64,000 nucleotides of DNA from a virus (IMGVR_UViG_3300023218_000062); one strand, 5' to 3'; shown: positions 14,116-59,028, counted from the first letter of the stretch. Made by a program: numbers and translations. The notes: a model not told the origin generated them from the letters alone.

Positions 14116-14153
14116 TTGACAACATCATAAAAATATGATAAAGGTCTTAAGAT
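14116..14153 (+). promoter_or_regulatory. TTGACA-N17-TAAAGG element (plus-strand copy)
   Basis: TTGACA 14116-14121, TAAAGG 14139-14144, then TCT TAAGAT. Confidence 0.7.
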
Positions 14154-14294
14154 ATGGTTTTGTATTTTGTGCCGTTGTATGCTACAATTGGAATATTGGT
14201 AGTCATCGGATTGACTAAATTGTCCCGGTTCGCATTAGGAATCAAGGGTAAGCTCAAGAAGCATATTGATGATTCGCGAGCGCGTTCAAAATAG
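14154..14294 (+). CDS. 46-aa membrane peptide
   Basis: MVLYFVPLYATIGILVVIGLTKLSRFALG...; no SD, possibly leaderless. Confidence 0.45.
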   Translation: MVLYFVPLYATIGILVVIGLTKLSRFALGIKGKLKKHIDDSRARSK

Positions 14295-14303
14295 GGAATA
14301 GAG

Positions 14304-15083
14304 ATGAAAATAATTTCAAAATATTCAGATTATTATGATTCGGCGATGGGGTCAGGTTATGATCCCACGTTGATTTTCAAACGTGAAGGTGCTTTTGATA
14401 AATCTATTGTATCTACTGTAGATTTTGGTAATTCGTATATTACAGTAGAACGGGATGGAGAGTCTTTATTTTTTGAAAAAAAATTGAATCCTGAATATTT
14501 CGGATATGGTTATAGGCCTCGTAATAAAAATGCCAGAAATTTACATAATAACGGACGTATTTTAAAAAATATTTTTGAACAATATTCCAAGAGGAACGTT
14601 AATGTCATTTCTAGTGAAGTTGATGTAATCGGATTTTGTGGTAGATTTTTTGTAATGTATTCGATTAGTTATTTTATGGATTATAGAAGTGAAGTATTTC
14701 GGGTAATTGATAAGAAAAATAGTTTGTTTAAAAAAATGGATAAGAAAGAGCAGGATCGTATTGTGGTAGGTGAGGTAAAGGATTTAATAAGGGGAAATGC
14801 CAATGATATTTTTTTGCATCTTAATTGTCCTATTTTTCATTTGAGGCCAATCAGGTATAGTAATCGGGTAAGAATCACGAGGAATCCGGTCTTGCAAGAT
14901 TTTGGATTTGCTGCTATATTTGATCCATATACTGCTTATCAGGAATTGTCTATGTACATGGGATCGGTGTTTGCGCCGTCTGAGCCTGATATGGTAGATA
15001 TATCTGATAAAGACATGTCTAAGGCCAAGGGATTTGATGATTGGTCTTTCAGAAAATATCCGACAAAGAGGAAGAAGAAATGA
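14304..15083 (+). CDS. conserved phage hypothetical protein
   Basis: MKIIS..SDYYD start and FDPYTAYQELSMYMG...KGFD.WSFRK end, typical of a widespread phage family. Confidence 0.75.
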   Translation: MKIISKYSDYYDSAMGSGYDPTLIFKREGAFDKSIVSTVDFGNSYITVERDGESLFFEKKLNPEYFGYGYRPRNKNARNLHNNGRILKNIFEQYSKRNVNVISSEVDVIGFCGRFFVMYSISYFMDYRSEVFRVIDKKNSLFKKMDKKEQDRIVVGEVKDLIRGNANDIFLHLNCPIFHLRPIRYSNRVRITRNPVLQDFGFAAIFDPYTAYQELSMYMGSVFAPSEPDMVDISDKDMSKAKGFDDWSFRKYPTKRKKK

Positions 15084-15276
15084 TTTACATATTTGGATTT
15101 ATTGCGTTGTTATTGATTGCAGTTACTGTATGGAGTTATGTTAAAATAAGCAAGGATGATCGTTATTCTTATCGTGAAGTTGATGATACTTAGTGTTTAA
15201 CATATTTTTTTTAATTATATATAATAGACGTTTCCCATAGGGAATTATCAACACTTATAACTAAGGATTTTATGAC

Positions 15277-15555
15277 ATGGATATTGTAGGATATAATGTA
15301 TATGAAGCGCCAGATGGATGCTGCGAATCATTTCTTGGTGTCGTGTCTAATTTGAGTGAAGCGTATGATTTAGTTAACAGCGGTAAGGTCGGTCTTGAAG
15401 AAAGTTTATATGAGACTGCTAGGACTGCTGGACATTGTGGTGGTTTGTATGCTCCAGAGAAACAACATGAAGAAAATGAGCCAACAGAATGGTTTGGCCC
15501 TGATGGTTTTCACTGTGCTGTAGCTGTATTTAATGGAGAAATTAAACATGACTGA
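15277..15555 (+). CDS. hypothetical protein
   Basis: 92-aa ORF with AAGGA SD. Confidence 0.65.
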   Translation: MDIVGYNVYEAPDGCCESFLGVVSNLSEAYDLVNSGKVGLEESLYETARTAGHCGGLYAPEKQHEENEPTEWFGPDGFHCAVAVFNGEIKHD

Positions 15556-15805
15556 TATTATAAGTGGCGTAATTGAAGAACGTGGTAATGGCTTGCCTAG
15601 TGTTGATGATTATGCCTATGATAGCTTGACTAATACGGTTTACCGAATTGTCGACATTGGTCGTATTTTTACAGGGCGTGTTGGTCAGGGTAATTTGATG
15701 CATGTAAAGTTAGAAGAATATTATGGTGATCCGACTGATTTGACAGAAGAACAATTTGTTGATATTGTATGGGCTTTACATTTAGATGATGAAATACAAG
15801 AATAG
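15548..15805 (+). CDS. hypothetical protein
   Basis: ORF with GGAG SD before ATG 15548. Confidence 0.65.
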   Translation: MTDIISGVIEERGNGLPSVDDYAYDSLTNTVYRIVDIGRIFTGRVGQGNLMHVKLEEYYGDPTDLTEEQFVDIVWALHLDDEIQE

Positions 15806-16065: not shown

Positions 16066-16470
16066 ATGCTGTTATTTACTTTAACCTCAATCTATGGTAT
16101 TCTTACTATCATGAATAATACACACAGTAAACGAAAAACCGAACTTGCAAACGAAGTTAAAACATTCATTACAAATATCACAGGTATGGATGAAAGATTT
16201 GTTTCAAATTATACAAGCAATAATGAAAAATCCTATCCCGGTGATGGATTTTCATTTATAGAGTCAGACACTTATCTTTCCAACAATCGAACCATTAAGA
16301 ATTTAATTAAAAGATTGGATATCTTATTCAATGTATTATGTGAAAATGGATGGGAAGTAGATACCGAAGTAGAAATCTATGATCTTTCTATTCATTTGAC
16401 AAAAGAGCATTGTTTTATTGTATTATCTATTAACCGAAATGGATTGTATGTTTATTTTGAGGAGATTTGA
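16066..16470 (+). CDS. hypothetical protein
   Basis: 134-aa ORF (start may be ATG 16111). Confidence 0.6.
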   Translation: MLLFTLTSIYGILTIMNNTHSKRKTELANEVKTFITNITGMDERFVSNYTSNNEKSYPGDGFSFIESDTYLSNNRTIKNLIKRLDILFNVLCENGWEVDTEVEIYDLSIHLTKEHCFIVLSINRNGLYVYFEEI

Positions 16471-16793
16471 TAGAGTTTTTGTGTATAATAATGATGTTTA
16501 TGAACAGATCCTTGTGCATATTTTTGTTGTTTGGGTGTTTTGAAAGATACACAGGATAAGCCTCAATATAAACCTGAGTGGGGTGAACAACAAGAGATTC
16601 TTAGTTATGATGTACTATCCGAAAATACAAAAATTACGCTGATAAAGATGAATGACGGTGGAATGTCATTTTCAGAAATCGCAGATCATATCGAAAAAAG
16701 AATTTTGCCGCGTCTAAAGTAAAATTAAAGAATCTATTGACAGTTAAGCAAACATCAGATATACTTTATTTCCAACAAATTAGGAGAATTTAA

Positions 16794-18216: not shown

Positions 18217-20670
18217 GTGAAGCTCAATATCAGTACCCATAAGGCTACAGGCGTAGGATTTAAAGAAGTTGCAAAATTCAAGATGGATATGAACGCTAAG
18301 GTGGCTCGTGTCTTGTCTGATACTCTTTATAAGGATAAGATTGGTTCTATCATTCGTGAGATTAGCTGCAATGCTTTTGATGCTCACGTTGAAGCCGGGT
18401 GTCCTGAAAAGCCTTTTAAGGTTAAGCTTCCGGATGCTTTTGATCCTACCTTTTCGGTTCGTGATTTTGGTCCGGGGTTAAGCCATGAGGATGTTGAAGG
18501 TATCTATACCACGTACTTTGGTTCTACTAAGGATCAGGCCAATGATGCTGTAGGCGCATTCGGTCTCGGTTCTAAGACTCCGTTTTCATACACTGATTCA
18601 TTCATGGTGACTTCTATTCATAAGGGTGTGAAGCGTGTATATAATGCTTATCTTGAAGAGGGATTACCACAGATTAGCATGTTCAATGAAGGTGAAGAAA
18701 CTGATGAACCTAACGGTCTTGAAGTAACAGTAACTATTGATCCAAAGGATTTCCATGAATTTAAAAATTCTTTGGTAAAGCAGCTTCGTTTCTTTCCGGT
18801 AAAGCCGGAAGCTAACGTAGAATGGCCGACGATTGAAAAGGAAATTGCTAAGATTGATGAGTTCGTGTACTTTCAATCAAATGATGATGTTATGCATGGA
18901 TTCTTTATCAAGCAGGGTCCGGTAGCATATCCAGTAGACTTTGATTTAATACGTGACTATTACACTACTCATATTAGTAAAACCGGAAGTTCTAAGAATC
19001 TGCCATATTATGCTCGAAACCCACAACATGAGGGCGAGCGTTTCATTCAGTTTCTTGAATCGTTCAACCGTAGAACATGCGGTAGGTTTAATATTTATGG
19101 TGCATATATGGATATGCCTATTGGTACCGTAGAAGTTACGGCCAGTCGTGAAGGTATCTCGTACACTCAAGAAACGATGCATAATATTTGCGTTGCACTA
19201 GATAATGTTAGGAATAAAATGTTTGGTTCTATCAAGCATAAACTCGATGATGCTTTTGCTACTTCAAAAGGTGAGTTTTACAATTTGTATAATGATTTGC
19301 CGGAGTTCATGGTATCGCTTCTGCCGAGGGAACGATTCAATCAAAAGTACAATCCGTTTTATATTAATAGGAACAATTTGTTAAATTTGAAACTTCCTAG
19401 AAAATTTAAGGAATTGGAAGTATCTGATTATTCTTGTATCAATGGTAAGCCTAAGAAAGAATCACACTATTCATGGTCTAATTCAAATAGGGCCAATGGC
19501 ACTCCTGACTATGAAAATTCCCCATTTGCGTTTAATGTGTTGAATCGCATTCTCGGGAATAATCCTGTTTATTACAAGGATGAAAATTATGCGTATGTTA
19601 CAAGAACGTTCAATGATGTCGAGTCTGGTAGAAAATTTGTAATTATTGATTTGCCGAAGGATAAGTATAATAGCTTCATTAAGTTTCTAGATGGTGCTGC
19701 GGGAGATATTACAAAAATATCTAGCCTTCCTATGCCGTCACGTAATACCAAGTCTACTGGTCATAGTATTACTGGTGGTAAGAGGCGTTCTTGGTTCTGG
19801 CTGAACAGTCAAATTTTTAATAATAGTAGTAATACATTGTATAGTTACGGTTGCGATCAAGAATTTGAAGAAACCGTCGAAGATTATAATGGTAAGACTC
19901 TTGTATGTTTCAATACGTACAACAATAAGATTGGTGATACTGGATTGCCATTTGAAATTCTACATTTGATATTTAATTATGTTGCAATTAAAAAGTCTGA
20001 TGATTATGCATGTATCGGTATTTCAGAAAAAGATATGAAACGTGCATTGAAAAAGAATCCAAACAATTTTGTATCTGTTAAGGATTACTTTGAAACTCAC
20101 AAGGATGAAATCATTAAGACCGCCCGAAGCAGTATTAATGATGCTATTGTTGAAGCGTATGAAAATAGAATACATATGCACTTCAACATGAACAGAATGA
20201 TGTTTAACATTCTTGAAAGTATCAAGATTGAACGGGACATTACACTGGTTGGGTTGGATGATGTTTTTGTATCGAAAGCTGAATATGAAAAAAATAATTC
20301 AGGTAAAGAAAAGTCAAATTTTCTAGGCTCGATGCACCCGGAAAGGTTTAAGAATGTAATGGCATATTTGGGTACGCATGATGTTTTGAATCTTCAACAG
20401 AATGTTCAAAACATCCTAAATTCTGCCACTTCAATGGAACAGCTTGAAAAGGAATTAAAGGGTTTGAATATCCCTATTCTTTCTATGGTGGAGAATCATA
20501 AGATAATTGTAAAAATGCTCAAGAATCCAGCTAATAGAAAGACTTTTCTAAATCTGTTTGTTGAAGGTAGAATTGGGAATCATTGCAAAATTATTGATTG
20601 TTTCAATTCTGATACTATTCTGATTGATCCGGTCAGGATTGCAAAGGAAATTATTGATGAAATTGCTTGA
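18217..20670 (+). CDS. rIIA: rIIA lysis inhibition/membrane integrity protein
   Basis: GHKL-type N-terminus: LSDTLYKDKIGSIIREISCNAFDAH, VRDFGPGLS, YFGSTK, GAFGLGSK.PFSYTDSF; followed by rIIB. Confidence 0.93.
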   Translation: MKLNISTHKATGVGFKEVAKFKMDMNAKVARVLSDTLYKDKIGSIIREISCNAFDAHVEAGCPEKPFKVKLPDAFDPTFSVRDFGPGLSHEDVEGIYTTYFGSTKDQANDAVGAFGLGSKTPFSYTDSFMVTSIHKGVKRVYNAYLEEGLPQISMFNEGEETDEPNGLEVTVTIDPKDFHEFKNSLVKQLRFFPVKPEANVEWPTIEKEIAKIDEFVYFQSNDDVMHGFFIKQGPVAYPVDFDLIRDYYTTHISKTGSSKNLPYYARNPQHEGERFIQFLESFNRRTCGRFNIYGAYMDMPIGTVEVTASREGISYTQETMHNICVALDNVRNKMFGSIKHKLDDAFATSKGEFYNLYNDLPEFMVSLLPRERFNQKYNPFYINRNNLLNLKLPRKFKELEVSDYSCINGKPKKESHYSWSNSNRANGTPDYENSPFAFNVLNRILGNNPVYYKDENYAYVTRTFNDVESGRKFVIIDLPKDKYNSFIKFLDGAAGDITKISSLPMPSRNTKSTGHSITGGKRRSWFWLNSQIFNNSSNTLYSYGCDQEFEETVEDYNGKTLVCFNTYNNKIGDTGLPFEILHLIFNYVAIKKSDDYACIGISEKDMKRALKKNPNNFVSVKDYFETHKDEIIKTARSSINDAIVEAYENRIHMHFNMNRMMFNILESIKIERDITLVGLDDVFVSKAEYEKNNSGKEKSNFLGSMHPERFKNVMAYLGTHDVLNLQQNVQNILNSATSMEQLEKELKGLNIPILSMVENHKIIVKMLKNPANRKTFLNLFVEGRIGNHCKIIDCFNSDTILIDPVRIAKEIIDEIA

Positions 20671-39955: not shown

Positions 39956-39997
39956 TTGACATTGATTTGAATATATGATAAAGGTCCTAGGATAGGG
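39956..39997 (+). promoter_or_regulatory. TTGACA-N17-TAAAGG element (plus-strand copy)
   Basis: TTGACA 39956-39961, TAAAGG 39979-39984, TCC TAGGAT AGG. Confidence 0.7.
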
Positions 39998-40200
39998 ATT
40001 AAAAACTTTTACATTTCATTAACCTTTATGCTACACTATGTGTCCCGGCTAACCAAGGAAACATACCCTAAGTGGTATGAAATCCCGTAGGGCATAGAGT
40101 TGTTTCAAAAAAATTCGGAAGCATATTTTTAATAATTCATTGACATAACGAATTTCGTAGATTATACTATTTATCATAAACCGTAAAATAGGAGCTAAGC

Positions 40201-40947: not shown

Positions 40948-41595
40948 AAGTCTGCCGGGATACTCTAAGAGTCAGTCGTTAATCGGCTGACTCATTTCTG
41001 AACACTTAGACTGACGGCACTCCAAAAACTTTGTATAGGACGTTGTAAATCTTATCAATGCATTGGTAAATAGCTTTCTTTAATTATAGAACATGAGGAT
41101 TAACAAATGAATGAGCGAAATACATACTCTTTGATGCATGGGCTGGAAAAACTATGATACTAGAACTCTTAAACGTACTCTCGGCAATTGCAGTAATCTT
41201 TGTTACAGGGATGATTGCAGGTGCTAAACTCATACTCAAAGTAAGGGAGAAATAAATAAAATTGAATCAATGTCAATACGGTATTTTGGTTGAAAGTGAT
41301 TATGGTGGAGTAGGTATGGTTGTTGGAATCACGAATAATGCAAGAGGCGTAGAGCTTTCTGTATGCAAGAAAAAATTCATACAATTCCAATAGTTCAATG
41401 GTCTTGTGGAGAAACTTCCAGTATTCATCGCGAAAAAATAAAGAAACTCTAATATTCTCTCGAAAAAAGGGATAAGATAATTCTTATCCCTACCGTAGAG
41501 CCTTTATCATGTATTTTAAATAATGTCAAGAGTTTTTTTAATTGGTTTGTTGAGTATCCTATGGTAATATGTCAAGAGTTTTAATAAAGAAATCA

Positions 41596-43812: not shown

Positions 43813-44076
43813 TAAACATATAAAGAAGAAAAAATGGGCGGTATATCAGCACCTATAAAAAGCTGGGGATGGACAGCCCCTTAAATGATATATTAACCCT
43901 TTTTTCTTTTCACCTATAGGAGAAAAGGTCCGGTTATTCGGGACTTTTATTTTTCCTACTCTAGAGCCTTTACCATAGATTGAACCTATTGTCAAGAAAA
44001 TTAATTATAAAATTTTTCTTGATTTCTAAATAGAAGTTCGGTAGAATGCACTAAATCGAATAAGAATGGAAATCAA

Positions 44077-46056: not shown

Positions 46057-46087
46057 ATCAATTGAACGGTAGTCAATATAATAATGA

Positions 46088-46116
46088 AACAGGGGGCTAG
46101 CCCCCTGTTTCTTTTT
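46088..46116 (+). terminator. intrinsic terminator
   Basis: AAACAGGGGG-CTAG-CCCCCTGTTT followed by T run. Confidence 0.8.
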
Positions 46117-46170
46117 CGACATAATGTAAGTTTTTCTTGACATTTACGAAAATGATGGTATATTGAAACC

Positions 46171-46974: not shown

Positions 46975-47011
46975 TATGATTTGGTTTTACAATATACAAA
47001 CAGGAAAGTAA

Positions 47012-47493
47012 ATGAGTGCTGGAACACACTATTCACTAGCATTTGATTTAAATAAAATGCAAGCGCTATGTAAAGAAGCAGCGTATAAATTAAATACATA
47101 TCAAAAAGAAAATAAGTGTGATATTGTTTTCATTTATTCTGGAATGTCCGGGATAGCTACAGCAACAGCATTAGCTCATTATTTATATTGCGATTATGAT
47201 ATTGTTGCGCATATGATCTATGTACGTAAAGAAAATGATAACAATCATAACGACTCAATAGTTGAATGGAGCGAGAATAGCCAAAGATATAATAAAGCTG
47301 CTATTTTTTTATTGATGACCTTATTGAAAGTGGAAATACATTTAATCGTACACGAAATTATGCAAGCAGGGCACAATTTATAAAAGCGAAAAAACTTACT
47401 AATAAACATATTGGAACAATTCTTATTGAATTTGATTTAATGTTTAAAATTCCTCAAAAACATGTAATACTTGATAATTATAACCGAGGATAG
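47012..47493 (+). CDS. type I phosphoribosyltransferase-like protein, frameshift in T-run at ~47305
   Basis: SGMSGIATATALA, IYVRKE, and after the frame change the PRPP loop FFIDDLIESGNT. Confidence 0.7.
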
Positions 47494-47497
47494 ATAG

Positions 47498-47707
47498 ATG
47501 TTTGACGAAAGAACTTTTTATGGTAATATTGTTACAGTGCATGTTAGAATTAACAATATCGTGAATGTTAAACATAACATATATGATTATGAGCACGAAA
47601 TCTCGTTAAATGATGCTATCAAAGAGGGTAAAATTTGCAGTGAGGATAATACAAAACAATATTATTTTTCCTCACCTATAATAGAATGGCTGAAAACTTT
47701 TAAATAA
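47498..47707 (+). CDS. hypothetical protein
   Basis: GAGG SD. Confidence 0.55.
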   Translation: MFDERTFYGNIVTVHVRINNIVNVKHNIYDYEHEISLNDAIKEGKICSEDNTKQYYFSSPIIEWLKTFK

Positions 47708-47718
47708 CGGAAAAGCTT

Positions 47719-47916
47719 ATGAAAGAATATGGATATACACTGTATACAAATACAGGTGAAAAAATTAGAGGAACAGTGTCATGCAAAAACGAACAAATTG
47801 CAAATGGTACTGTAAAGAGTATCAAGAATGCTCGCCAAGATGTTGAATTTGCTACCATTGATAGTCTTGATGTACCTTGTGATTATGATTGGGATGAAGA
47901 TTGTAAGGCATGGTAG
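47719..47916 (+). CDS. hypothetical protein
   Basis: 65-aa ORF. Confidence 0.55.
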   Translation: MKEYGYTLYTNTGEKIRGTVSCKNEQIANGTVKSIKNARQDVEFATIDSLDVPCDYDWDEDCKAW

Positions 47917-47997
47917 TCAAGAATATTTTAATAACTACTTGACAAAACTCAAATTTAAAGGTATAGTTAAAAAATCACATAATACAACATAGGAGTG

Positions 47998-48708
47998 ATG
48001 AAAATGCAAACACAAACACTAGAAACACTAAAAAATCATGGTTTAACTATCAACGAAAATGAACTGGATTCCGAGGATTTGGTTTCTCAGTTGGGTAGTA
48101 TGGATGTAGGTGATCTGTGGACTATTGTAGAAGAACTTAGCGGTGATGAAGCCATCAGAATTGATGATAATGAACAAGTGCAAAGTTTGGCACTAAGTTA
48201 TGCTCTAGTTGATGCCTTTGAAAATGATCTTGATCAAATCAGTCAGGCTGAAATTGATGCTGCGATACAGAAGGCTACAGAATCTACTAATAAGCTAACA
48301 GATAATATGCCCGAAAAAGAAGATGAAGCTGAAACTGAACCCAACGAAACCCAAGTTGGGGTCAAGACTAATCGAAAGACTCTTGTCAAAAGTTTGGTAG
48401 AAGAAAACCCTGATGCATTAGCGGATGAAATTGTGGACATGGCAGCGGAAGCTGATCCTGATATGAATACAACAACCGCCAAACAGTATTACTATAACGC
48501 CCGAAAGGAACTAGGATTGAAAGCTGTTGGAAAATGTGGTCGTAAGCCGTCCGATACTATGGACCGCATTAAGGCCATACTGGATGGCAACCTTGATGTT
48601 CCCAAATCTGAAATGGTTGAAAAAATTGTATCAGAAATTGGCGTCAAGGAAGGTACAGCATCTACGTATTATTCCAAGGCTAAAAAGCAGTTGAAACAAA
48701 ACGCATAA
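47998..48708 (+). CDS. putative DNA-binding protein with two C-terminal HTH-like repeats (paralog of 55119-55853)
   Basis: TAKQYYYNARKELGL..VG..GRKPS and GTASTYYSKAKKQL repeats. Confidence 0.7.
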   Translation: MKMQTQTLETLKNHGLTINENELDSEDLVSQLGSMDVGDLWTIVEELSGDEAIRIDDNEQVQSLALSYALVDAFENDLDQISQAEIDAAIQKATESTNKLTDNMPEKEDEAETEPNETQVGVKTNRKTLVKSLVEENPDALADEIVDMAAEADPDMNTTTAKQYYYNARKELGLKAVGKCGRKPSDTMDRIKAILDGNLDVPKSEMVEKIVSEIGVKEGTASTYYSKAKKQLKQNA

Positions 48709-48726
48709 AACCAAAAGGATAATTAA

Positions 48727-48921
48727 ATGAGAAAGAATTTTCCGGAACGTAAAAAAGCTCGTCGCCGTCAGGCTCTTGAACAAGTAAATGCACGCATCAA
48801 GCGTGGCGGAAAGGCTGCTAACCCTGATGAACGTGAAAGTAAGGGCATCACGGGGAACAAGGAAGCGCAACGTCTTGAACAGGCTAAGTATGAAAAAGCT
48901 CTACTAGAAAAAAGAGTTTAA
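48727..48921 (+). CDS. small basic protein
   Basis: AAGGA SD; Arg/Lys-rich. Confidence 0.65.
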   Translation: MRKNFPERKKARRRQALEQVNARIKRGGKAANPDERESKGITGNKEAQRLEQAKYEKALLEKRV

Positions 48922-49741
48922 TGGAATCATACTTAATAGCATTATGGAAGGAACTTGACCCATTGCGCAATATTTGACTTTCAAGCTCTGGTTGGGTATA
49001 ATTATCCTAATGGGAGCAATTTCTGCCTACCGTTGAAGATAGCGTTCTTGTAGGTAGTGCATGGAATATTATATGTATTGCGGGGAATATGTCTTATGAA
49101 GAACAGAATAACACATTGAAATTAATTAAGGGGTTTTCGATCAAGGATGGTGCGGATTATATCCTCCAACATATCATTCCAATGATCGAAAAGAAAATGA
49201 AAAGATAATGACAACATGATATAGATTATCATGTTGATAAGCCTAAAACTGATTATATACATGTTTTTGATGAGTATCGTGGTACGGGTCTTGCTGAACA
49301 ATTGCATTATCGTGCTGCAAAATGGATGCAATGTTTTATTGATGATGATTTGGTAAGAACTAAAAAACTCAACGGGCACACTTTTAATTATCTTGATGTG
49401 TCCAAGAACTTACGGCTTGACAGCGTAGCTTAATGACATTAAACTGCTGGAACTCTTTTAAGGAATCTCTCATGAACGAAATGCGAAAGATTGAAGTGTC
49501 CAAGGGAAAATACATTCTTTACAATGATACTTTTTTTGTTAAATCATGCGGCAAACATATTGTATGGACTTCTGCAAGACAGAATGCATATATGTTCGAT
49601 TCAAACATTCAAGTAGAAGATTGCCTTGAAAAAATAAACAAATTTCTTCGTAATAGCACTTGACAGACATGAATTTTTCTGTATAATGGTTCACATGGTC
49701 ATCGGGACCAGACATTAACCCTTCAATCAGGAGAACATAAA

Positions 49742-49918
49742 GTGAGTAATCGTACTCGGGAATACACTCTGGAAGTCTATCGCAACAAGCGCTATCGTAC
49801 CGTTCATGCTTCTCGCAAGATTTCACAATGTCTCAAGCGAGTGTGGAGCATGTATGACCGTTGCCGTATTCGCCTGAATGGTGAACAGGTGGTTCATCAG
49901 TTTCCTGCCTGTCAGTAA
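49742..49918 (+). CDS. 58-aa hypothetical protein (GTG start; missed by ORF track)
   Basis: AGGAG SD, TTGACA-TATAAT promoter at ~49661-49688. Confidence 0.6.
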   Translation: MSNRTREYTLEVYRNKRYRTVHASRKISQCLKRVWSMYDRCRIRLNGEQVVHQFPACQ

Positions 49919-49985
49919 ACATCAACTCAAAATTGTGGGGAAGGAACTTCCTTCCCCACACTAATCAATTAAAGGTTGTAAGTAT

Positions 49986-50186
49986 ATGAATCTCCACGAA
50001 AAAATCACACATATAAATAAATTGGCAGAAGATTTTGGGCTGACAGTCAAATTCGATTCGGAATTCAAGAAACTGTTCATCTATAATCCTACTCCGGGTC
50101 GCCAGCGTATCAAGGCTATCACAGATTTGTCGTTGGAATCTGTTAAAGAATCTCTCTTTTGGGTTGCATCATCATCCAAGGCATGA
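49986..50186 (+). CDS. hypothetical protein
   Basis: 66-aa ORF after a terminator-like hairpin. Confidence 0.55.
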   Translation: MNLHEKITHINKLAEDFGLTVKFDSEFKKLFIYNPTPGRQRIKAITDLSLESVKESLFWVASSSKA

Positions 50187-50801
50187 TATACTAATGTTTT
50201 CATTCCATAAAGGTTCTAACACAATGCAGACAAGTTTTGATGTTTACCAAAACGGAAAACTGATTCACGTTCTACAATTTAACTACGATGTGAGTCCACA
50301 AAAAATCAAACAGGATATGGGAGAACGCGATGGATTTCAAGGACCATTGTTAGTCGTAAAAAAGCCAATGCTTAAAGTGAAATAACACTTGTCAAGCTAC
50401 TTTGAAACTTCTCAGTATGGAGAATGTTCTTAATTTCAAAACATAGGAATATACCGCATGATTACTAAGCAACAGAATGAAATGATTAGAGAGTTACGTG
50501 ACAGTGGATGCGCGGTCATTATTTTTCCGCTAGAAGACCTGAAGGGTGTTGACCCTGAATTAATTGAAGAAGCGCTAATAGTTGAAGGTAACATTATTAT
50601 TGAGAAATTGTCTCAAGAATGATAGGTAACTACTTGTCTAAAAAGGAAAAATGGACTCTCGCAATTCTTTATATGATAGTAATTATAGAGTTTACAGTTG
50701 TCATATACATGGCATCCAATCAATAATAATTTAAATAGTGGTTGCATTATTTGAATTTTTCTATATAATAGATTTCACATTCATTGATAGGAGAGTATTT
50801 G

Positions 50802-51308
50802 ATGCATACCATTTATGAAGCACGGCAAGAAGTTGAAAAGTGTCTTGAACGTGCAAAGGAACTCTTTGGTTTCAACGCGGATGTTGACATTTCTTTTGAC
50901 AAACGTGGTCGTATTGCTGGAATGGCACATAACTCGCCTAATGGATATGCTTTGAAATTCAATCATCAATTGCTCGAAAACGAACATTGGGGAGAATTGA
51001 TTGATGAAACGATTCCCCATGAGGTAGCGCATATTGTATGCTACTTTAATCCTACTCTTGGTAAGAATCATGACCAAGGCTGGCGTAGAGTATGCAGAAT
51101 GTTGGGTGGTCGTGGTGATCGTACTCATAATATGCCGCTCAAACGTGCTCGGGTGACTCGTAAGGCACTCTATGAGATCAATGGCAAGACTGTTCATGTT
51201 GGTCTTACTGTGCATCGTAGAATCCAACAGGGAAGGGCTTACAATATGCGTAGTGCTGGCAGAATACATCCTACTGACTTCACTGGACAGATTATAAAAA
51301 TGAAATAA
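50802..51308 (+). CDS. SprT-like zinc metalloprotease
   Basis: RGRIAGMA, LKFN..LL, ETIPHEVAHIV, HDQGWRRVCRMLGG. Confidence 0.88.
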   Translation: MHTIYEARQEVEKCLERAKELFGFNADVDISFDKRGRIAGMAHNSPNGYALKFNHQLLENEHWGELIDETIPHEVAHIVCYFNPTLGKNHDQGWRRVCRMLGGRGDRTHNMPLKRARVTRKALYEINGKTVHVGLTVHRRIQQGRAYNMRSAGRIHPTDFTGQIIKMK

Positions 51309-51356
51309 GACTTGACAAAACCCTCGATAGTTGATACTATTATAACTATCGAGGGT

Positions 51357-51523
51357 GTTTTAAGAGTGACTTTAACACTGGCCTTTCATTTTAGCTTTCG
51401 CTCACATTTTAGATTGTTGCCGGTCACACTTTCCTCGGGGGATATTGGATGAATTGATGAATGGTGCGGGTCAATAACCCAATCCTGAAATCACGAAGAT
51501 CAAGTTAGAGTCACTCTTAAAAC
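51357..51523. ncRNA. candidate ncRNA closed by an 18-bp stem
   Basis: TTTAAGAGTGACTTTAAC (51358-51375) pairs with GTTAGAGTCACTCTTAAA (51504-51521); no ORF inside. Confidence 0.5.
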
Positions 51524-52061
51524 ATTTTTAAACATCGGAGCTATGTAATGTCTAAACGACTCGAAGCATTAAGCGAAAAGGTTCGAAAAGGTATTCCCAT
51601 CAACTTTGCAGAAGGCATCGAAGTTATTGAATATCAGGAGCGGTTGCAGGCAGACCGAGAGCGAAAACGTAACAAGACTGTAATAGGCAGACTAATAAAC
51701 TGGATTCAACATAGATACGGGATATAAAAATGAGAACTCTAGAACAAATCGAACAGGAATATCGGAGAGTTAGTGATATTCTTTCATGGGAACCTGTTAC
51801 GGAAGAAGGTTTGTTAGAACTTCCCTTTCCAGACGTCGTATGAATAACAGATTTGTGCGAGGTCGCCTTACTCGGGATCGTTCCGGTACTGTTAGTGTCA
51901 ACATCGATCATACCATGTTGGCATGTAATTTAAATGATGCAATCAGAGCACTACACACCGAAGCAGGTGAAGTGTATTTGAACAATGTTTGACAAATCTG
52001 ACAAAATGAGGTTGAAGATGAATTTGAATGGGATGATTTTATTGAAAGTATTCGTATTAGT

Positions 52062-52373
52062 TTGATAGATAAATTCTCTTCTTTTCGTGTAACTGATAAG
52101 TGGTTGGATCGTGAATCACATGCAATTCTTGAAAACGATTTCGGAACCGTAACGGTTAATGAATATTGCGGCATGGCTGCTATTAGTTTTGTTCCTGTTG
52201 ATTATTCTACCGTTGCACCATATCGGTATGAAACACTTCGTCAAGAAAATTTGTGCTTCGGTTGGATGCGTCAAATTGAACATACATGGAGAAAAATTAT
52301 TGGTCAACATGGAACTTCATTTAATTTACATGGATTTATGTCGAATGGTGTGGGAGTATTTGTAAGAGAATAA
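52062..52373 (+). CDS. hypothetical protein (3' part of a frameshifted gene starting near 51838)
   Basis: FMSNGVGVF end motif; upstream ORF 51786-51992 joins by a frame change. Confidence 0.55.
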   Translation: MIDKFSSFRVTDKWLDRESHAILENDFGTVTVNEYCGMAAISFVPVDYSTVAPYRYETLRQENLCFGWMRQIEHTWRKIIGQHGTSFNLHGFMSNGVGVFVRE

Positions 52374-52537
52374 TTTAACAAATACCCCTTGACAAATCTG
52401 AAATCTATTGTATAATTGTTTCATCATTTTTATAAAGGAACCATAATGTCACCTGATGCAGAATATGTTTTTCATCATATTGACTAATTCAATCGTATGT
52501 GGCATACTATTAAAAATCTATCTAATGGAGATATTAA

Positions 52538-52948
52538 ATGTTTACACTTCAAGATTGCTTCAATGCTGCATGGCACCATTTTATCGAAAATCAAAATCCT
52601 CCATCGGTCTCGTTAGGGGTATGGAGCGATGGTAAATACAAACCAGTGTATAATAATGGCACAAATAAATGTGCAATCGGTCTATTGACTGATGATCTTA
52701 AATATTGGGATGGTAGCATTCAAGAGTTATTTACGGAACAGAAAAAGGAATTCAAGGATCTCATACAACAGTTTAATGTTAATTCAGTCATAGAGGGTAT
52801 TGAAGCATGGCAGGAAGCGCAAAATAGGCTCCATGATGATCTTATTAACTACACAACTGGTGAATGGGCTTGTTCATTTCAAGAGCGTAAAGATAGCTAT
52901 ATTCAGTTTGCGCAGGAATTTGCTTTGAAAATCCCGAATGAACATTAA
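52538..52948 (+). CDS. hypothetical protein
   Basis: GGAG SD; KCAIGLL motif. Confidence 0.65.
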   Translation: MFTLQDCFNAAWHHFIENQNPPSVSLGVWSDGKYKPVYNNGTNKCAIGLLTDDLKYWDGSIQELFTEQKKEFKDLIQQFNVNSVIEGIEAWQEAQNRLHDDLINYTTGEWACSFQERKDSYIQFAQEFALKIPNEH

Positions 52949-52950
52949 CC

Positions 52951-53145
52951 ATGAACATTAATGAAGTTTACGAAAATTTGTGCATTAGGGATTCCAGAAA
53001 TCCGATGTATGATGCATTGAAGGGTCCATATGATACCATGCCTGACCCTAGAATCAATTGTGCGTGCGACAATTGTTTCTATGGTAGAGACAGATTAGCT
53101 CTTGAAATTATTCGATTGCGTATGAAATTGAATTTATATCATTAG
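52951..53145 (+). CDS. Cys-rich hypothetical protein
   Basis: LCIRDSRNP...CACDNCFYGRDRLA. Confidence 0.65.
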   Translation: MNINEVYENLCIRDSRNPMYDALKGPYDTMPDPRINCACDNCFYGRDRLALEIIRLRMKLNLYH

Positions 53146-53260
53146 CGGTCAACAAACTTTTCGATACCTGATATAAATATATCATCATACATGAGGACTT
53201 TCTGGAAACTGGTGTGATACTGGCATTATATTATTAGTTAAGCGCCCTTATACCCCCTCA

Positions 53261-53287
53261 AACCCCCTAACGTATCGTTAGGGGTTT
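53261..53287. repeat. palindrome family copy 3
   Basis: AACCCCCTAACGTATCGTTAGGGGTTT. Confidence 0.75.
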
Positions 53288-53420
53288 AATGTATCTCATT
53301 CTTAACAGTATCCCGTTTAATGTACAGAATGAGATATATTATTATATTTTCAAATTTTTATTGCATTGTTTGGCTAGCCATGATACAATATACTCACATT
53401 CACTAATCAGAGAAACTTAA

Positions 53421-53699
53421 ATGTCTGCCGAAGTTGTCAACGGACGTTTCATGGTTTGTGTTGATTGCGCTATGTTCATCGCTAATGATGATCTTAGCAG
53501 ACTTGATTACCATTTTCTTCCTGATGAAGCGGAACAGCGTGAAATCGCTATCCGTAATAGTGTTCAACATCAAATCAATCAGGGAAATCATATTGTTATG
53601 AGAAATTCTGATGATGATATTGAATTTTCCAAAAGTCCTTGTGATTGTTGTGCCGATCATTTACATGGATATCGTCACCATGCGGTTTTACTTAAATGA
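53421..53699 (+). CDS. zinc-binding hypothetical protein
   Basis: CVDC and FSKSPCDCC...G.RH motifs. Confidence 0.7.
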   Translation: MSAEVVNGRFMVCVDCAMFIANDDLSRLDYHFLPDEAEQREIAIRNSVQHQINQGNHIVMRNSDDDIEFSKSPCDCCADHLHGYRHHAVLLK

Positions 53700-53783
53700 G
53701 AACCATTCTCATTTGACAATAAGAACCATTCTCATTTGACAATAAGAACCATTCTCATTTGACAATAAGAACCATTCTCATTT
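53694..53783. repeat. 23-bp tandem repeat x3.7 of Fur-box-like sites
   Basis: Unit AGAACCATTCTCATTTGACAATA; first unit reads AAATGAGAACCATTCTCATTT. Confidence 0.9.
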
Positions 53784-53984
53784 AACCTTATCTCGATTCA
53801 ACCCTAGATAGTAACATGTAACATCCTGTAAATGCAAGACTTTTTTCATCCTATCCTAGGGCCTTTATCATATCCTGATACCGTTGTCAAGTAATTTTTA
53901 AAAAATTAATTTTTAAATTTCTATTGACAACGCTTTATATCTAAGCGATAATATTTGCACATTCACTGATAAAGGTAACTCGTT

Positions 53985-54293
53985 ATGCGAAAGATTGAAC
54001 AACAAATGATTGAAGCCATTCAAAACAAGCGCAATTGGAAGTCTGGCAATACTTCGGTCGAATACTTACCAGAAATTGAAACAGTTACGCGGGCACGTAT
54101 TGAAATGGCAAAAGTTTATCTTTTCGGTAACTGTATTGCTACCTATTCTTATTATAATAATACGGCTTATATCGTTGCCAGTACGCTTGTAAAATGGCCT
54201 ACTGTTACAACCTTTTCTCGCCTTCGTGCTCTTGGGTTTGATCCTAAATCGGAACTCAAGAGAATTGCAAATAACATACAGGATGCAGCATGA
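53985..54293 (+). CDS. early hypothetical protein (MRKIE...VYLFGN.IA family)
   Basis: Own promoter 53924-53952 and terminator ~54447-54470. Confidence 0.75.
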   Translation: MRKIEQQMIEAIQNKRNWKSGNTSVEYLPEIETVTRARIEMAKVYLFGNCIATYSYYNNTAYIVASTLVKWPTVTTFSRLRALGFDPKSELKRIANNIQDAA

Positions 54294-54606
54294 AAAACAA
54301 TTATCGCAAACTAACCAAGAAACAATGGTATGACCTTGGCGGCTTTGCCACTCCATCATTGTTTCGTCGTGACCGTGGCAAGGGATGGGAATACTATCAG
54401 GATACAGACCACCCTGCTAGTGATTATAACTATAGTGAATAAAGAATCGGGGCTTCGGCCCCTTTTCTTTTATCCTACTCTAGAGCCTTTATCATACAAT
54501 CAAAACAATTGCAACCCATAAATGAAATAATTTATTTTAAATAAGTATTGACTCTTCTGAAAATATCAGTATAATTGTTTACATCATTTCAATAAGGGAA
54601 ATAGTT

Positions 54607-54846
54607 ATGGAAAATGTAAATTTTGCTGGTTTTGAGTCCACCGTTGAATTTGCCACGTATTCGAATGGGCGCACCGCTATTCAGCTTTGTGATGCAAACG
54701 ATGGCCAGCCAATTGCTACGGCAACAGTCAACCTTCCCGATGAACCGATGGCTGAGGATGAGGCTGATATCAAGAACTATAGCGAAAACTCTGGCATATT
54801 AGATGCTTTAATAGACGCTGGGGGTGATTGCCCGCCCGCATCGTGA
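54607..54846 (+). CDS. early hypothetical protein (YSNGRTAIQL...PIATATVNL...IKNYSEN family)
   Basis: Own promoter 54548-54575; C-terminus possibly frameshifted. Confidence 0.7.
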   Translation: MENVNFAGFESTVEFATYSNGRTAIQLCDANDGQPIATATVNLPDEPMAEDEADIKNYSENSGILDALIDAGGDCPPAS

Positions 54847-55118
54847 AATCCCTAGGGGCTTCGTCACCATACCAGTCTGCACCCTTCTGGTCAATCCAAC
54901 TCAATCCTAGTCAGTGAATGGTCTAGGTGGGCACGGTTTTCCGTGCCCTTTTTTAATCCTACTCTAAAGCCTTTATCATATCCTATCCCATGGGGCAACA
55001 ACGTTCGACGGAACTATGTCACAAAAAATTTTACCAATAATTACTAAACCCCTTGCAATCTCTCGAAAAATAATTATAATAGATTCTAACATTCACTAAA
55101 CAAAGGATAGTAGATATT

Positions 55119-55853
55119 ATGCCAAGTCAAGAAATCGTTGAAATTTTCCGGAATCATGGCGTGAACATCACTGCCAACGACAAGAGTACGAAACTGGTCA
55201 GGGTGCTCAAAGAAGAAAACCCTGCATCACTATGGCCCATACTTGAAGAGTTTACTAACAACAAGCCAATCGGCCTTGATGGCTGCAATGAAAGGATGCA
55301 TCATTACACGCTGCAATATGCACTGGTAAGGGCGTTTGAGCAGGACCGTACCAGTATCACTCAAGAAGATATTGACGCTGCCCGTCAAGACGCTGCAAAA
55401 CTCGCTGAATCTCTTTCTACAGGTTCATCTACTCGCGCTGATACAGTAGTCGAAAACGATGATATTGATGATACAGAAAATACCACCAAGGTCGCCAAAA
55501 CTCGAAAACGTGATGCTAGCTTGTATCCATTGATTCTTTCACTTGTCGAAAGCAACATGAAGGCAACACCTAACGAAATTCTCGATATGGTGAAAAAATC
55601 AAAGCCCGACGTTAACGAGTCCACTGCTAAAGTGTACTACAGCAAGGCACGCAATGAACTCAACCTCCCGAAGATCGGTAGGCGTGGCCGTAAGAATTCA
55701 GGTATCTATGACAAGATCAAGGCATTGATTGAAACTAACCCGGCCGCTTATCGTGCTGAAATGATCGAACGCATCGTTAATGAACTTGGAGCCAAGACAG
55801 GCACCGCTCAAGCCTACTACAGCAAGGCAATGAGAGAATTGAGCCTAACCTAG
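55119..55853 (+). CDS. putative DNA-binding protein, paralog of 47998-48708
   Basis: STAKVYYSKARNELNL..IGRRGRK.S and GTAQAYYSKAMREL. Confidence 0.75.
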   Translation: MPSQEIVEIFRNHGVNITANDKSTKLVRVLKEENPASLWPILEEFTNNKPIGLDGCNERMHHYTLQYALVRAFEQDRTSITQEDIDAARQDAAKLAESLSTGSSTRADTVVENDDIDDTENTTKVAKTRKRDASLYPLILSLVESNMKATPNEILDMVKKSKPDVNESTAKVYYSKARNELNLPKIGRRGRKNSGIYDKIKALIETNPAAYRAEMIERIVNELGAKTGTAQAYYSKAMRELSLT

Positions 55854-56061
55854 CTTAAGATCAAAAACTATTCAGGGGGCATCCTATGCCCCCCTGAATT
55901 TTATCCTATTCTAATGCCTTTAACTCATCAATATAATCAACATCTATCAATCAATCAGAATTCATGCACAAATCGGATTTACAATTATTTTCAGAAATCG
56001 GTTGACGATCCTGAAAATATCTGTATAATCCTTAATTACATTCACTGATAGGAGATTACTT

Positions 56062-56337
56062 ATGTATGACCAAGATAACTTGATCGAGATTGGAAACGAA
56101 GCCGTCAAGGCAATCGAAGCGAGCATCGAAGATATGTATCGTGCCATGGAAGACATTAACACGCATTTACTCGGAATGTATGATGCGTTACCTGATTCAA
56201 CCATCAACCATAACGTGAAGGCACTGGACGGCCTTATACCAGCACTGGACGGCCTTATTATTAAAAACGTAAGACCCGGAGTTCTGGAACTTGAACACGA
56301 AATTCATAAACTCAAGCTCAAATTAAGCAAATTGTGA
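56062..56337 (+). CDS. early hypothetical protein with a 21-bp internal duplication
   Basis: AGGAG SD; ALDGLIP-ALDGLI. Confidence 0.7.
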   Translation: MYDQDNLIEIGNEAVKAIEASIEDMYRAMEDINTHLLGMYDALPDSTINHNVKALDGLIPALDGLIIKNVRPGVLELEHEIHKLKLKLSKL

Positions 56338-56588
56338 ATGAATGAATAGGGTTCCGGCCCTTAGCTCACTTTGCCCCGCTGTCAAGCGGGGCTTTTTTTA
56401 TCCTATTCTAATGCCTTTAACTCATCGTCATCCATTTGTCAATACCCTAAGCAAAAATATAATCAACATCTATCAATCAATCAGAATTCATGCACAAATC
56501 GGATTTACAATTATTTTCAGAAATCGGTTGACGATCCTGAAAATATCTGTATAATCCTTAATTACATTCACTGATAGGAGAAAACAAG

Positions 56589-56843
56589 ATGCAGGAACGA
56601 TTCGACAAGATCATGGAAGCCGGAAACAACGGTCGGTTTTTTTCTGTTCGCTTCATCAAGCGGTCCAATGGTGCGGAACGTTTCATGAACTGCCGTCTTG
56701 GAGTCACGAAACACCTCAAGGGCGGTAACAAGGCATACGATGATAAGGCTCACAATCTTGTCACCGTTTACGATCTTCAAGCCGAAGGGTATCGCTGCAT
56801 TCCATTGGAAAGCATCTTTGAACTTAACGGTGAACCTATCTGA
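56589..56843 (+). CDS. small SH3/WYL-like fold phage protein
   Basis: FFSVRFIKR.NG.ER.MNCRLGV..HLKGG...LVTVYDL...GYRCI. Confidence 0.7.
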   Translation: MQERFDKIMEAGNNGRFFSVRFIKRSNGAERFMNCRLGVTKHLKGGNKAYDDKAHNLVTVYDLQAEGYRCIPLESIFELNGEPI

Positions 56844-57050
56844 TAGGTTCAATCGTATCATCAGGAGGATGCGAATCATTCGCATCCTCTTTTTTATCCT
56901 AGGGCCTTTAACTCATCATCAACCATTTGTCAAGAACTTTCGACGGAACTGCATTACATAAAAAAATTTACAATTATTTTCAGAAATCGGTTGACGATCC
57001 TGAAAATATCTGTATAATCCTTAATTACATTCACTGATAAGGGTAACACG

Positions 57051-57938
57051 ATGAACGGAAATCAAAAGATTCACAAGATTGTAGCGCAAGCTTTTATAGA
57101 CCAAATCGAAGCAGGCATGGCGGATGGTAAATGGACTGCTCCATGGGCGAAGTTTGCCACAGACTTTCCGACCAATGCAGTGACAAAAAAGACATACCGT
57201 GGTTTCAATATCTTCTCATTGTGGAGCGCTGGATTCTCATCTCCGTATTGGGCTACCTTTAAGCAATGGAAGTCGATTGATGCCACGGTCAAGAAAGGAT
57301 CAAAAGGTTCATTGGTTGTTTTCTGGAAAATCATCGATTCCAAGACTCGATTCGACGCTAACGGCAATCCTGAAAAGGTTCCCTTCCTGCGATTCTCGAA
57401 CGTATTCAATGCCGATCAAGTTGACGGCTGGACCGCTCCGACACTGGAAGATCGTCCTACCCTTTCAACAAATGAAATTCACGCTGAATGCGACGCAATG
57501 ATCGCAGCAACAGGCGCTGAAATCCAGCATGGCGGCAATATGGCCTGTTACATTCCAAGCCATGACCGCATCCTGCTTCCTGAATTCAACGCCTTCCATG
57601 ATGCGGATTCATACTATCAGACCGCATTCCATGAACTGGCGCATTGGACGGGTCATGCTTCACGACTGGACCGCAATCTTTCAACCCGGTTCGGAAGCAA
57701 TGCATATGCTTTGGAAGAACTGCTAGCAGAACTTACAGCAGCCATTGTGGGCGTTCGTATGGGCATTGATGTCACTACCCGCATGGACCATGCAAAGTAT
57801 GTGAAGAGCTGGCTCACAGCGCTTCGTGAACAGCCTGAATGCCTGATGCATATCGCCAGCAAGGCAAGCAAGGTAGCGGATTACCTGATCGAAGGCGAAG
57901 CAGGTGAAACCGAACAGTATCAAGCGCAAGCCGCTTGA
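57051..57938 (+). CDS. ardC: ArdC-family antirestriction ssDNA-binding protein with zincin-like C-terminus
   Basis: W..PW, P.N..T...YRGFN, WATFKQW, VKKGSKG, VFNADQ, ACY.PS.DRI..P..F, FHELAHWTGH.SRLDR, YA.EEL.AE. Confidence 0.93.
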   Translation: MNGNQKIHKIVAQAFIDQIEAGMADGKWTAPWAKFATDFPTNAVTKKTYRGFNIFSLWSAGFSSPYWATFKQWKSIDATVKKGSKGSLVVFWKIIDSKTRFDANGNPEKVPFLRFSNVFNADQVDGWTAPTLEDRPTLSTNEIHAECDAMIAATGAEIQHGGNMACYIPSHDRILLPEFNAFHDADSYYQTAFHELAHWTGHASRLDRNLSTRFGSNAYALEELLAELTAAIVGVRMGIDVTTRMDHAKYVKSWLTALREQPECLMHIASKASKVADYLIEGEAGETEQYQAQAA

Positions 57939-59028
57939 TTAATCATTAGGTACCATTGAGGATGCGAATCATTCGCATCCTCTTTTTTTATCCTACTTTA
58001 GACCCTTTAACTCATCATCAACCATTTGTCAAGAATTTTCAATTACAACTTTATTCTATATCCGCTTGACTAAACGCTATGGTGCATGGTACTATATACT
58101 CGCATTCACTGAAACATTAGAAATCAAATACAATTCCGATATCATTCAGAGCGAAACCGATTTGGTAGACTCTCTTATCAGCGATACCACGTTCGCTTCA
58201 AAACTGCAACGCAAACCAAACTAGCATATCATATTCATTACAATGACCAATGCGACAAAGTGGTTCGATCTGCTATGTTATGGCGCTATAGATCACTTGG
58301 AAAGTAATTGACAATCCGAAAAGTGTCTGTATAATATAGACTACAGCCTAAGCAAACTAAACAGGTATGAAGATGAATGATTCATTGCAACATCAACAAA
58401 TGGAATGGAATGATCTTGAAGAGAGAGTTACTCATCATGATACCATGAAAGAACTCTCACCGTTAGAGTATCAATGGTTGAAAGATTATCGAATGCACTT
58501 CAATAAGATGTGATGTATAACTATACAGTGGAGATATATACAGTACCATAAACACCATATAGAAAAACTGAAAACAAGTTTGGGATTTTTTTTCTTCTGT
58601 ATATTCATACAGTTGACAGGGGCGTACGGGCCGTGCTAAGCAATTGAGCAAATATTGACCACTTTTTTATATAGAAAGTGTCTCGAAAATTTTGATTAGT
58701 CCTACAGGAGAATATTAGACCCTTTTTTATTTTTTATTATTATTTTTTATCATTTGGTAGGATTTTTCACGATTTATAATAATTTGTGATCGTTTTTCAT
58801 AAGTTGTGGCTGTTTTTCATGAATATTGATAGACACAATTTTATTGTATAAACACAATACAATGTTTTGGCATTGATTCTGCTACACAGAATACAAGTTT
58901 CGGTTTTGTATATATGAAAGGGGGGGGTCTTTTATATAAGGGTTTACATATTATCGAAATTTTTTTCTCAGAGTTTTTATCTGGTATGACTTATACTATA
59001 AAAATATTGAAAGATGTTAAAAATCAGT

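Follow-up and report, generated by a model that had tools for sequence, protein, structure and literature searches.

A recurrent promoter-like TAAAGG element at early-gene cassette boundaries of related uncultured T4-like jumbo phages

Introduction

The viral DNA stretch IMGVR_UViG_3300023218_000062 (64,000 nucleotides, analysed in full and called the window here) is the early region of an uncultured, tRNA-rich, T4-like jumbo phage carrying rIIA and rIIB. Besides these two genes it encodes RNA ligases of the Rnl1 and Rnl2 types and 15 tRNAs, its GC content is ~33%, and from 40 to 64 kb it contains small plus-strand open reading frames (ORFs). The closest rIIA proteins are those of Xanthomonas jumbo phages (~40% identity), and contigs of up to 270 kb carry proteins of the window and of a relative. 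An Rfam scan of the window returned tRNAs only, and a megablast search with 53-58.5 kb against a phage collection gave no match. Dispersed over this region are 11 copies of a discrete promoter-like motif, TTGACA-N17-TAAAGG followed by a conserved box, which recurs in related phages, compensates a poor -10 hexamer by its -35 and TGn parts and has a preferred place between the terminator of one early gene and the promoter of the next. From this we infer polymerase binding, promoter activity and the formation of antisense RNA, and we discuss the TAAAGG elements as candidate -35/TGn promoters.

Relatives were reached via homologues of rIIA and HerA and the contigs that carry them. One contig, L028, represents the same phage (99.75% identical), while L030 to L033 share 78-88% protein identity in rIIA or HerA. 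A distant relative, with a HerA protein 59% identical, was represented by 36.5 kb merged from the loci L039, L034 and L038 of a 242-kb contig.

The TAAAGG elements of the window

The string TTGACA-N17-TAAAGG has 8 exact matches in the window, while dinucleotide-preserving shuffles lead to an expectation of 0.01. Listing TAAAGG hexamers that are followed by the common downstream box added 3 further copies, with TTGCAA (hexamer at 54491) or TTGCCC (54975) as the -35 or with AGATGT in place of any -35 (55922). Of the resulting 11 copies, the plus strand carries 2 (TAAAGG at 14139 and 39979) and the minus strand the other 9 (41506, 43972, 53867, 54491, 54975, 55922, 56419, 56910 and 58009). A sequence-only reading of the window had proposed eleven copies; all 11 were recovered, the 8 exact matches lying where it had placed them. 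The elements are listed here with their orthologues in related contigs.

14116..14158 (+): element at the head of a rightward gene block; TTGACA 14116-14121, TG 14136-14137, TAAAGG 14139-14144, box tcTTAAGATATGG; orthologues in L030 (+5018) and L031 (+2658), with different spacer and box
39956..39998 (+): element at a divergent junction, its own -35 ~5 bp from that of the leftward promoter (TTGCAT); a TTTACA-N18-TACACT promoter lies 23 nt downstream; orthologues in L033 (+2985) and L034 (+8521)
41487..41529 (-): element followed at once by a hairpin and T6 on its own strand (41491-41468); orthologues in L032 (-1926) and L033 (-5045)
43953..43995 (-): element adjoining the plus-strand terminator 43929-43942; partner plus-strand promoter 44019-44047; orthologues in L032 (-3988, 18-nt spacer) and L033 (-7521)
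53848..53890 (-): element with partner plus-strand promoter 53924-53952; its edge is the start of the strain-variant joint 53840->56394
54472..54514 (-): element with -35 TTGCAA, adjoining the terminator 54449-54462; partner promoter 54548-54575
54956..54998 (-): element with -35 TTGCCC, adjoining the terminator 54929-54948; partner promoter 55053-55080; strains with a variant box still have TAAAGG (loose contig end at 54955)
55903..55945 (-): degenerate element lacking a -35 (AGATGT), adjoining the terminator 55875-55893; box with a 1-nt insertion in L028; a 535-nt insert just past the hexamer in one strain
56400..56442 (-): element adjoining the terminator 56373-56392; partner promoter 56528-56555; strain joints at 56394 and 56419
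56891..56933 (-): element adjoining the terminator 56863-56891; partner promoter 56991-57018
57990..58032 (-): element adjoining the terminator 57958-57982; partner promoter TTGACT-N18-TACTAT ~33 bp away

Alignment of the 11 copies gives the consensus TTGACA-N6-T.A..ATrTG.-TAAAGG-CyCTAGrrTAGGAT-A-run. The hexamer TAAAGG and a G at position -14 are invariant (11/11), and the G belongs to a TG at -15/-14 in 7/11 copies; neither the G nor the TG had been noticed in the first reading. The -35 is TTG-type in 10/11 copies and TTGACA in 8/11, with a spacer of exactly 17 nt in those 10, which bears out the earlier counts. TAAAGG matches TATAAT at 3/6 positions: it retains -12T, -11A and -9A and is devoid of -7T, and the claim of an invariant hexamer with -12T/-11A and no -7T was thus confirmed in every aligned copy. 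A second -10-like hexamer, TAnnnT, begins 3 nt past TAAAGG in 11/11 copies, where it had been described as usual, and the seventh base past TAAAGG is a purine in all of them.

The distinctness of these sites becomes apparent when they are compared with ordinary promoters, pooling the window and the distant relative (23 TAAAGG sites versus 165 canonical-like sites). TG at -15/-14 is present in 19/23 TAAAGG sites as compared to 35/165 canonical-like sites (p = 1e-8), G at -14 in 22/23 versus 53/165 (p = 3e-9), and a perfect TTGACA in 18/23 versus 81/165 (p = 0.013). TAAAGG elements are thus at their strongest in the contacts of sigma70 with duplex DNA (regions 4 and 3 and -12T) precisely where the -10 fails in its single-strand part. 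The recurrent TA-hexamers after TTGAC-N17 all conform to TAnnnT except for TAAAGG, which is itself the commonest. Taken together, the sequence comparison supports the view that the TAAAGG elements form a discrete, selected class of sigma70-type sites. One additional plus-strand site at 40270-40298, TTGAGA-N17(TG)-TAAAGG, lies within an ORF (40201-40947), has no downstream box and is probably a chance match.

Conservation in related phages

Five related contigs have the element at corresponding positions. At orthologous sites in L030 to L033 the -35, the spacing, the TG and TAAAGG are kept while the spacer sequences differ, one spacer being 18 nt long. One cassette of L031 is absent from the window and brings a further copy with it. 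The distant relative contains 11 copies of TTGACA-N17-TGn-TAAAGG, 9 of which lie on the minus strand of a plus-strand gene block. In these, the -35 is TTGACA in 10/11 and TTGACC in one, the spacing is 17 in all and TG is found in 11/11, and 6/11 copies are followed by an A-run and a hairpin. Their downstream box, GCTGAAwAT, bears no likeness to CyCTAGrrTAGGAT, while nAnnnT is again found 3 nt past the hexamer in 8/11. By sequence, then, the promoter-like core is deeply conserved and the downstream box lineage-specific. The sequence-only reading had made its case depend on the spacing being conserved in related phages, and it is kept both in L030 to L033 and in the distant relative.

TTGACA-N17-TAAAGG has zero copies in T4, RB49, KVP40, XacN1 and DSS3_MAL1. 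Motif scans of IMG/VR yielded one family of unrelated sequences with a single copy each and one lone copy (L036/L037) but nothing else, a motif scan of metagenome contigs and a locus search in IMG/VR based on rIIA found nothing, loci based on ArdC were unrelated, and a literature search for TAAAGG together with TTGACA found nothing relevant. The lone copy in the IMG/VR contig L037 (G001:C1:22025-22053) is a single TTGACA-N17-TGATAAAGGGCTGAA in an otherwise motif-free viral contig of 43.9 kb and may be either a coincidence or an isolated relative.

Two side observations concern the distant relative. At L034:180-225 and L034:1333-1378 (minus strand), paralogous TTGACY-N17-TAAAGC sites, one base off TAAAGG in the hexamer and without TG, are aimed into the 3' ends of plus-strand tRNA genes, a similar layout of an antisense promoter-like site facing a gene end. 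Furthermore, a conserved anti-Shine-Dalgarno-like string, ACCTCCrrGGAAT in plus-strand reading, stands ahead of several cassette terminator hairpins (L038:12080-12130, 15490-15540, 16430-16480 and 19440-19500, in minus-strand reading).

A conserved core next to a lineage-specific box raises the question whether a phage protein reads the element. A modified or phage-encoded sigma factor or an activator might recognise TAAAGG and the box (~-6 to +8), replace the role of -7T and thereby define a temporal class of its own. The invariance of AAGG in two lineages, which canonical sigma70 contacts leave unexplained, would fit such a factor, as would a box that is uniform inside a lineage and different between lineages, as expected for a co-evolving protein. 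At block heads the elements stand in tandem with canonical promoters, much as early and middle promoters do in T4 (PMC2988021). However, reliance on the host -35 and on TGn favours ordinary sigma70, and tblastn with sigma, AsiA and MotA gave no relative (for AsiA and MotA nothing below E = 0.1), a weak point considering that the sequence read covers ~64 of roughly 270 kb. On balance, dependence on a phage factor strikes us as improbable.

Terminators, partner promoters and phasing

Between 53.8 and 58.1 kb there are 7 modules with a hairpin and T-run, a TTGACn-16/17-TATAAT promoter and a small plus-strand ORF. The full order is a GC hairpin with T-run, the inverted TAAAGG element, an AT-rich stretch, TTGACn-16/17-TATAAT, a CATTCACTGA leader with Shine-Dalgarno (SD) sequence and the ORF. 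A plus-strand hairpin with T-run adjoins 7/9 minus-strand copies, so that the earlier description of these copies as facing into the terminator of the preceding early gene holds for most of them; the copy at 41506 has a terminator on its own strand and that at 53867 a weak hairpin only. The claim that most copies are paired with a divergent canonical promoter stands, as such a promoter lies upstream of 9/11. The 2 plus-strand copies mark two strand-switch points, each separated by only ~5 bp from a leftward promoter's -35 and closely followed by another rightward promoter-like site.

The gaps between the -35 of the element and that of its partner are 2, 11, 12, 22, 23, 33, 33, 33, 46 and 53-57 bp and cluster at multiples of ~11 bp (R = 0.67 for a period of 11, which scores highest among periods scanned between 7 and 15.5 bp). 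With paralogues collapsed, and using positions 41500 to 58100 of the window together with the merged L039/L034/L038, the empirical p is ~0.001 for partner promoters and a period that were both picked post hoc. A fixed rotational relation between the element and its partner promoter is therefore suggestive only.

The leaders and promoters of the modules deserve a separate remark. The CATTCACTGA leader is conserved between the forward cassette promoters and the SD (53950-53975, 56030-56060, 57020-57045 and 58095-58110), and at 53962-53975 it contains the string of stop codons plus SD, TGATAAAGG, that is the same as the element's TGATAAAGG. Blocks of forward promoter and leader are identical in three adjacent cassettes (55930-56055 = 56456-56581, 126 bp; 55977-56050 = 56966-57039, 74 bp), and two copies of the terminator lie at 56863 and 57958, which points to a recent duplication or gene conversion of modules.

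This setting also bears on the possibility that the elements are non-productive docks, at which holoenzyme would be bound via the -35, TGn and -12T/-11A while melting stays incomplete or is held by the second hexamer. Behind the terminator, such a dock might insulate or stand in the way of polymerase arriving head-on; it might also be a local reservoir of polymerase or an architectural partner of the forward promoter. It would agree with the lack of -7T in all copies, with the second nAnnnT hexamer 3 nt on (11/11 window and 8/11 distant copies) amid boxes that are otherwise unrelated, and with the ~11-bp phasing of the two -35 regions. Polymerase released at an intrinsic terminator stays on the DNA and reinitiates at nearby promoters in either orientation (PMC6978380, PMC7957599, PMC10372574), and the element would be the first docking site met after such a release. 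Several points speak against a dock. Known -35/TGn promoters with a still worse -10 are productive (PMC2613000), the copies at block heads face genes and have no oncoming transcription to stop, and a trap would sequester polymerase that the phage needs. Moreover, the phasing, with partner and period chosen after the data were seen, is explicable by phased A-tracts common to two UP regions. We regard a non-productive dock, the chief rival of the promoter reading, as somewhat unlikely.

Strain variation at the elements

Population variants were studied by aligning contigs from four metagenome runs of one study on 52-59.5 kb, and they identify the elements as recombination junctions. A skip of 2,553 bp (53840->56394) joins the terminator/element junctions of two cassettes, the 535-nt insert of the degenerate copy at 55922 sits just past TAAAGG (joint 55928), and a further joint falls at 56419. 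Past TAAAGG at 58009 the whole sequence gives way to 35 new letters, which re-form TTGACA and a spacer of 17 nt with TGG at its end. Another joint connects two forward promoters (56007/53958), and assemblies break at the module repeats.

These joints could suggest that the elements have no transcriptional role at all and represent either cassette-end homology for recombination of the PeSL type known from T4-like phages (see below) or a decayed inverted copy of a promoter. That strain joints occur exactly at elements (2.5 kb lost by the skip, the insert at 55922, the replacement at 58009) and that L031 has its extra copy in a cassette absent from the window would be in line with this. Homology, however, would not call for a -35 of consensus sequence, a spacing fixed at 17 bp and G-14 alongside a free spacer, and a decayed promoter would not retain one invariant hexamer in two lineages. 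The variant at 58009, in addition, re-forms TTGACA-N17-TGG-TAAAGG from new letters, which indicates selection on the promoter-like geometry. An explanation by recombination or decay alone is accordingly highly improbable in our judgement.

Neighbouring genes

The gene for a HerA-like (DUF853) ATPase at 41809-43191 (+) has one TAAAGG element on either side. Its closest cellular homologues are found in the gammaproteobacteria Wenzhouxiangella and Arenimonas (64-68% identity), which may be a host clue or reflect recent gene capture. At 8010-9989 (-), an ORF resembling an AAA-ATPase or clamp loader is split by an intein splicing domain (Pfam PF14890, E = 7e-16).

Proposed function as -35/TGn promoters

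We favour, with a probability of about 0.5, that the TAAAGG elements are genuine -35/TGn promoters which depend on sigma70, initiate slowly or conditionally and produce mostly short or antisense RNAs. They would be a discrete, conserved component of the modules that bound early-gene cassettes in this clade of T4-like phages. The host holoenzyme is predicted to dock by duplex contacts, with sigma region 4 on TTGACA, a 17-bp spacer, region 3 on TGn and region 2.4 on -12T/-11A, while AAGG at -10 to -7 and the missing -7T would delay open-complex formation or promoter escape, or let it proceed only under certain conditions. Transcription would start ~7 nt past TAAAGG at the conserved purine. From the backward copies between a terminator and the next promoter, the transcript would cross the hairpin and be antisense to the 3' end of the preceding early gene, and if the hairpin acts bidirectionally the RNA would end after ~40 nt. 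Copies at block heads, in tandem with a canonical promoter, would contribute sense transcription. Should the phage possess an AsiA-like factor, the strict -35 dependence might render the elements an easily shut-off early class.

Several lines of evidence argue for -35/TGn promoters. The exact copies far outnumber chance, TAAAGG alone among the recurrent hexamers after TTGAC-N17 departs from TAnnnT, and the compensation by TG, G-14 and TTGACA is the hallmark by which such promoters are defined. Orthologues keep the -35, spacing, TG and TAAAGG despite differing spacers, the distant relative keeps TTGACA-17-TGn-TAAAGG beside a different box, the seventh base is a purine in all window copies, and the copies at block heads are aimed at genes.

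Other observations weigh against this assignment. The -7T is one of the two most important bases of the -10, and TAAAGG is without it. Copies facing away from any gene amount to 9/11, and most hairpins are devoid of a U-run on the strand of the element, so that with no gene ahead the product would be a long antisense RNA. The public runs that contain the stretch are of DNA only. Since a merely poor -10 need not be invariant, the fixation of AAGG in two lineages with diverged boxes implies a sequence-specific recognition beyond the canonical sigma70 contacts. The invariant AAGG, the lineage-specific box (~-6 to +8), the second hexamer and the suggestive ~11-bp phasing go beyond what this assignment explains. 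Instead of ordinary weak promoters, the elements might be a dedicated regulatory device of the clade, either read only by a phage-modified sigma70 holoenzyme or activator through TAAAGG and the box, or consisting of poised-polymerase sites that are rotationally phased with the cassette promoter and insulate cassettes or feed their neighbours; this we consider possible, at odds well short of even.

The consequences differ with the activity of the elements. If they fire as the -35/TGn promoters proposed here, the phage would have a built-in source of antisense RNA against its early genes. Elements that do no more than hold polymerase would instead act as natural insulators of transcription or as polymerase antennae.

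Comparison with known systems

Several promoter types were considered and rejected. T4 middle (MotA/AsiA) promoters, in which a MotA box (TGCTT) around -30 replaces the -35 and the -10 is a good TAnnnT, do not fit, because the element has a consensus -35, a non-TAnnnT hexamer and no MotA box. Late promoters of the T4 type (no -35, TATAAATA at -10) differ in that TAAAGG elements conserve the -35 and that the distant lineage has G(G/T/C)TAAAGG; GATAAAGG agrees with the late consensus TATAAATA at 5/8 positions (6/8 of the variant GATAAATA) and is found in only 6 window copies. Judged by eye, sigma28 (TAAA-N15-GCCGATAA) fails on spacing and -10, the boxes of sigma32, sigmaE, sigma54 and ECF/FecI were dismissed, and a promoter of a T7-like single-subunit polymerase is disfavoured by an upstream part that is too variable and by the conserved -35. 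In the same manner, other -10 registers and plus-strand readings of the motif were rejected, as were the second hexamer as a separate promoter (without -35 and TG), a small ORF or SD function of the element (start codon absent) and an inverted repeat with the forward promoter (unrelated spacers).

Two further sigma70 systems can be compared with the elements in single features. The "-10-less" promoter Pr of Pseudomonas putida needs a -15 element and preserved non-consensus -10 bases, with -6 to +6 also of importance; its output is limited by kinetics and depends on ppGpp/DksA (PMC3526299). Unlike the dispersed phage element described here, Pr is an individual promoter, serves to regulate a catabolic operon and has a non-consensus -35. 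In pauses of the lambda PR' type, a non-template -10-like hexamer, which sigma region 2 binds anew, is located in the initially transcribed part just downstream of the promoter's own -10. The second -10-like hexamer of the TAAAGG elements (TAnnnT in 11/11 window copies, nAnnnT in 8/11 distant ones) might be a counterpart of this promoter-proximal sigma70 pause signal, but being 3 nt on it lies at about -3 to +3, closer than the +1 to +6 of lambda. A Q-like antiterminator or binding site was not seen.

The closest match for the recognition architecture is the -35/TGn class, a defined class of sigma70 promoters (PMC2613000; PMC2988021). In its members gapA P1 of E. coli (-10 AATTTT) and Pminor of phage T4 (-10 GAAAAC, without -7T), the -35 and TGn are both needed and offset the poor -10, and unmodified host polymerase suffices; Pminor forms a normal open complex with a bubble from -11 to +3 and is strongly inhibited by AsiA (PMC2613000; PMC2988021). 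TAAAGG elements share the three sequence traits of the class (a -35 at 17 +/- 1 bp, TGn or G-14, a poor -10). The sequence-only reading had stated that no described element has such an architecture, a claim that these promoters contradict, and its label pseudo-promoter was premature, as Pminor likewise has no -7T and is active with host polymerase. The difference is one of organisation: gapA P1 and Pminor are single promoters with unrelated -10 hexamers, whereas the TAAAGG elements number at least 22 in two lineages, share a single invariant hexamer next to a conserved box that contains a further -10-like hexamer, and mostly face away from genes.

The setting, in turn, is that of the PeSL (promoter-early stem-loop) modules of T4-type phages, which consist of a stem-loop terminator, an AT-rich stretch, a strong sigma70-like promoter, an SD and a small ORF in the hyperplastic early region (PMC2839356; PMC4122927). 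PeSL crossovers map in or beside the stem-loop (PMC2839356), the modules are concentrated where close relatives differ by an insertion or deletion (PMC4122927), and replacements break there too (PMC2839356; PMC4122927). Neighbouring PeSLs can also form mini-circles (PMC2839356). The modules of the window repeat the stem-loop terminator, early promoter and small ORF, and both their strain breakpoints (53840/56394, 56419, 55928, 58009 and 56007/53958) and the cassette swap in L031 parallel this behaviour. The inverted promoter-like element, in contrast, is absent from described PeSLs and present in the window modules.

Hence, the recognition architecture (-35/TGn) and the setting (a PeSL-like terminator/promoter cassette) are of kinds already known, while the invariant hexamer, the inverted site between terminator and forward promoter, the ~11-bp phasing and the second -10-like hexamer 3 nt on are new. 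The -35/TGn promoters are so far a handful of single examples, and the TAAAGG elements would be their first standardised and dispersed use by a phage. At the same time, the inverted element adds a third component to the PeSL module, which is thought to drive gene shuffling in T4-type phages.

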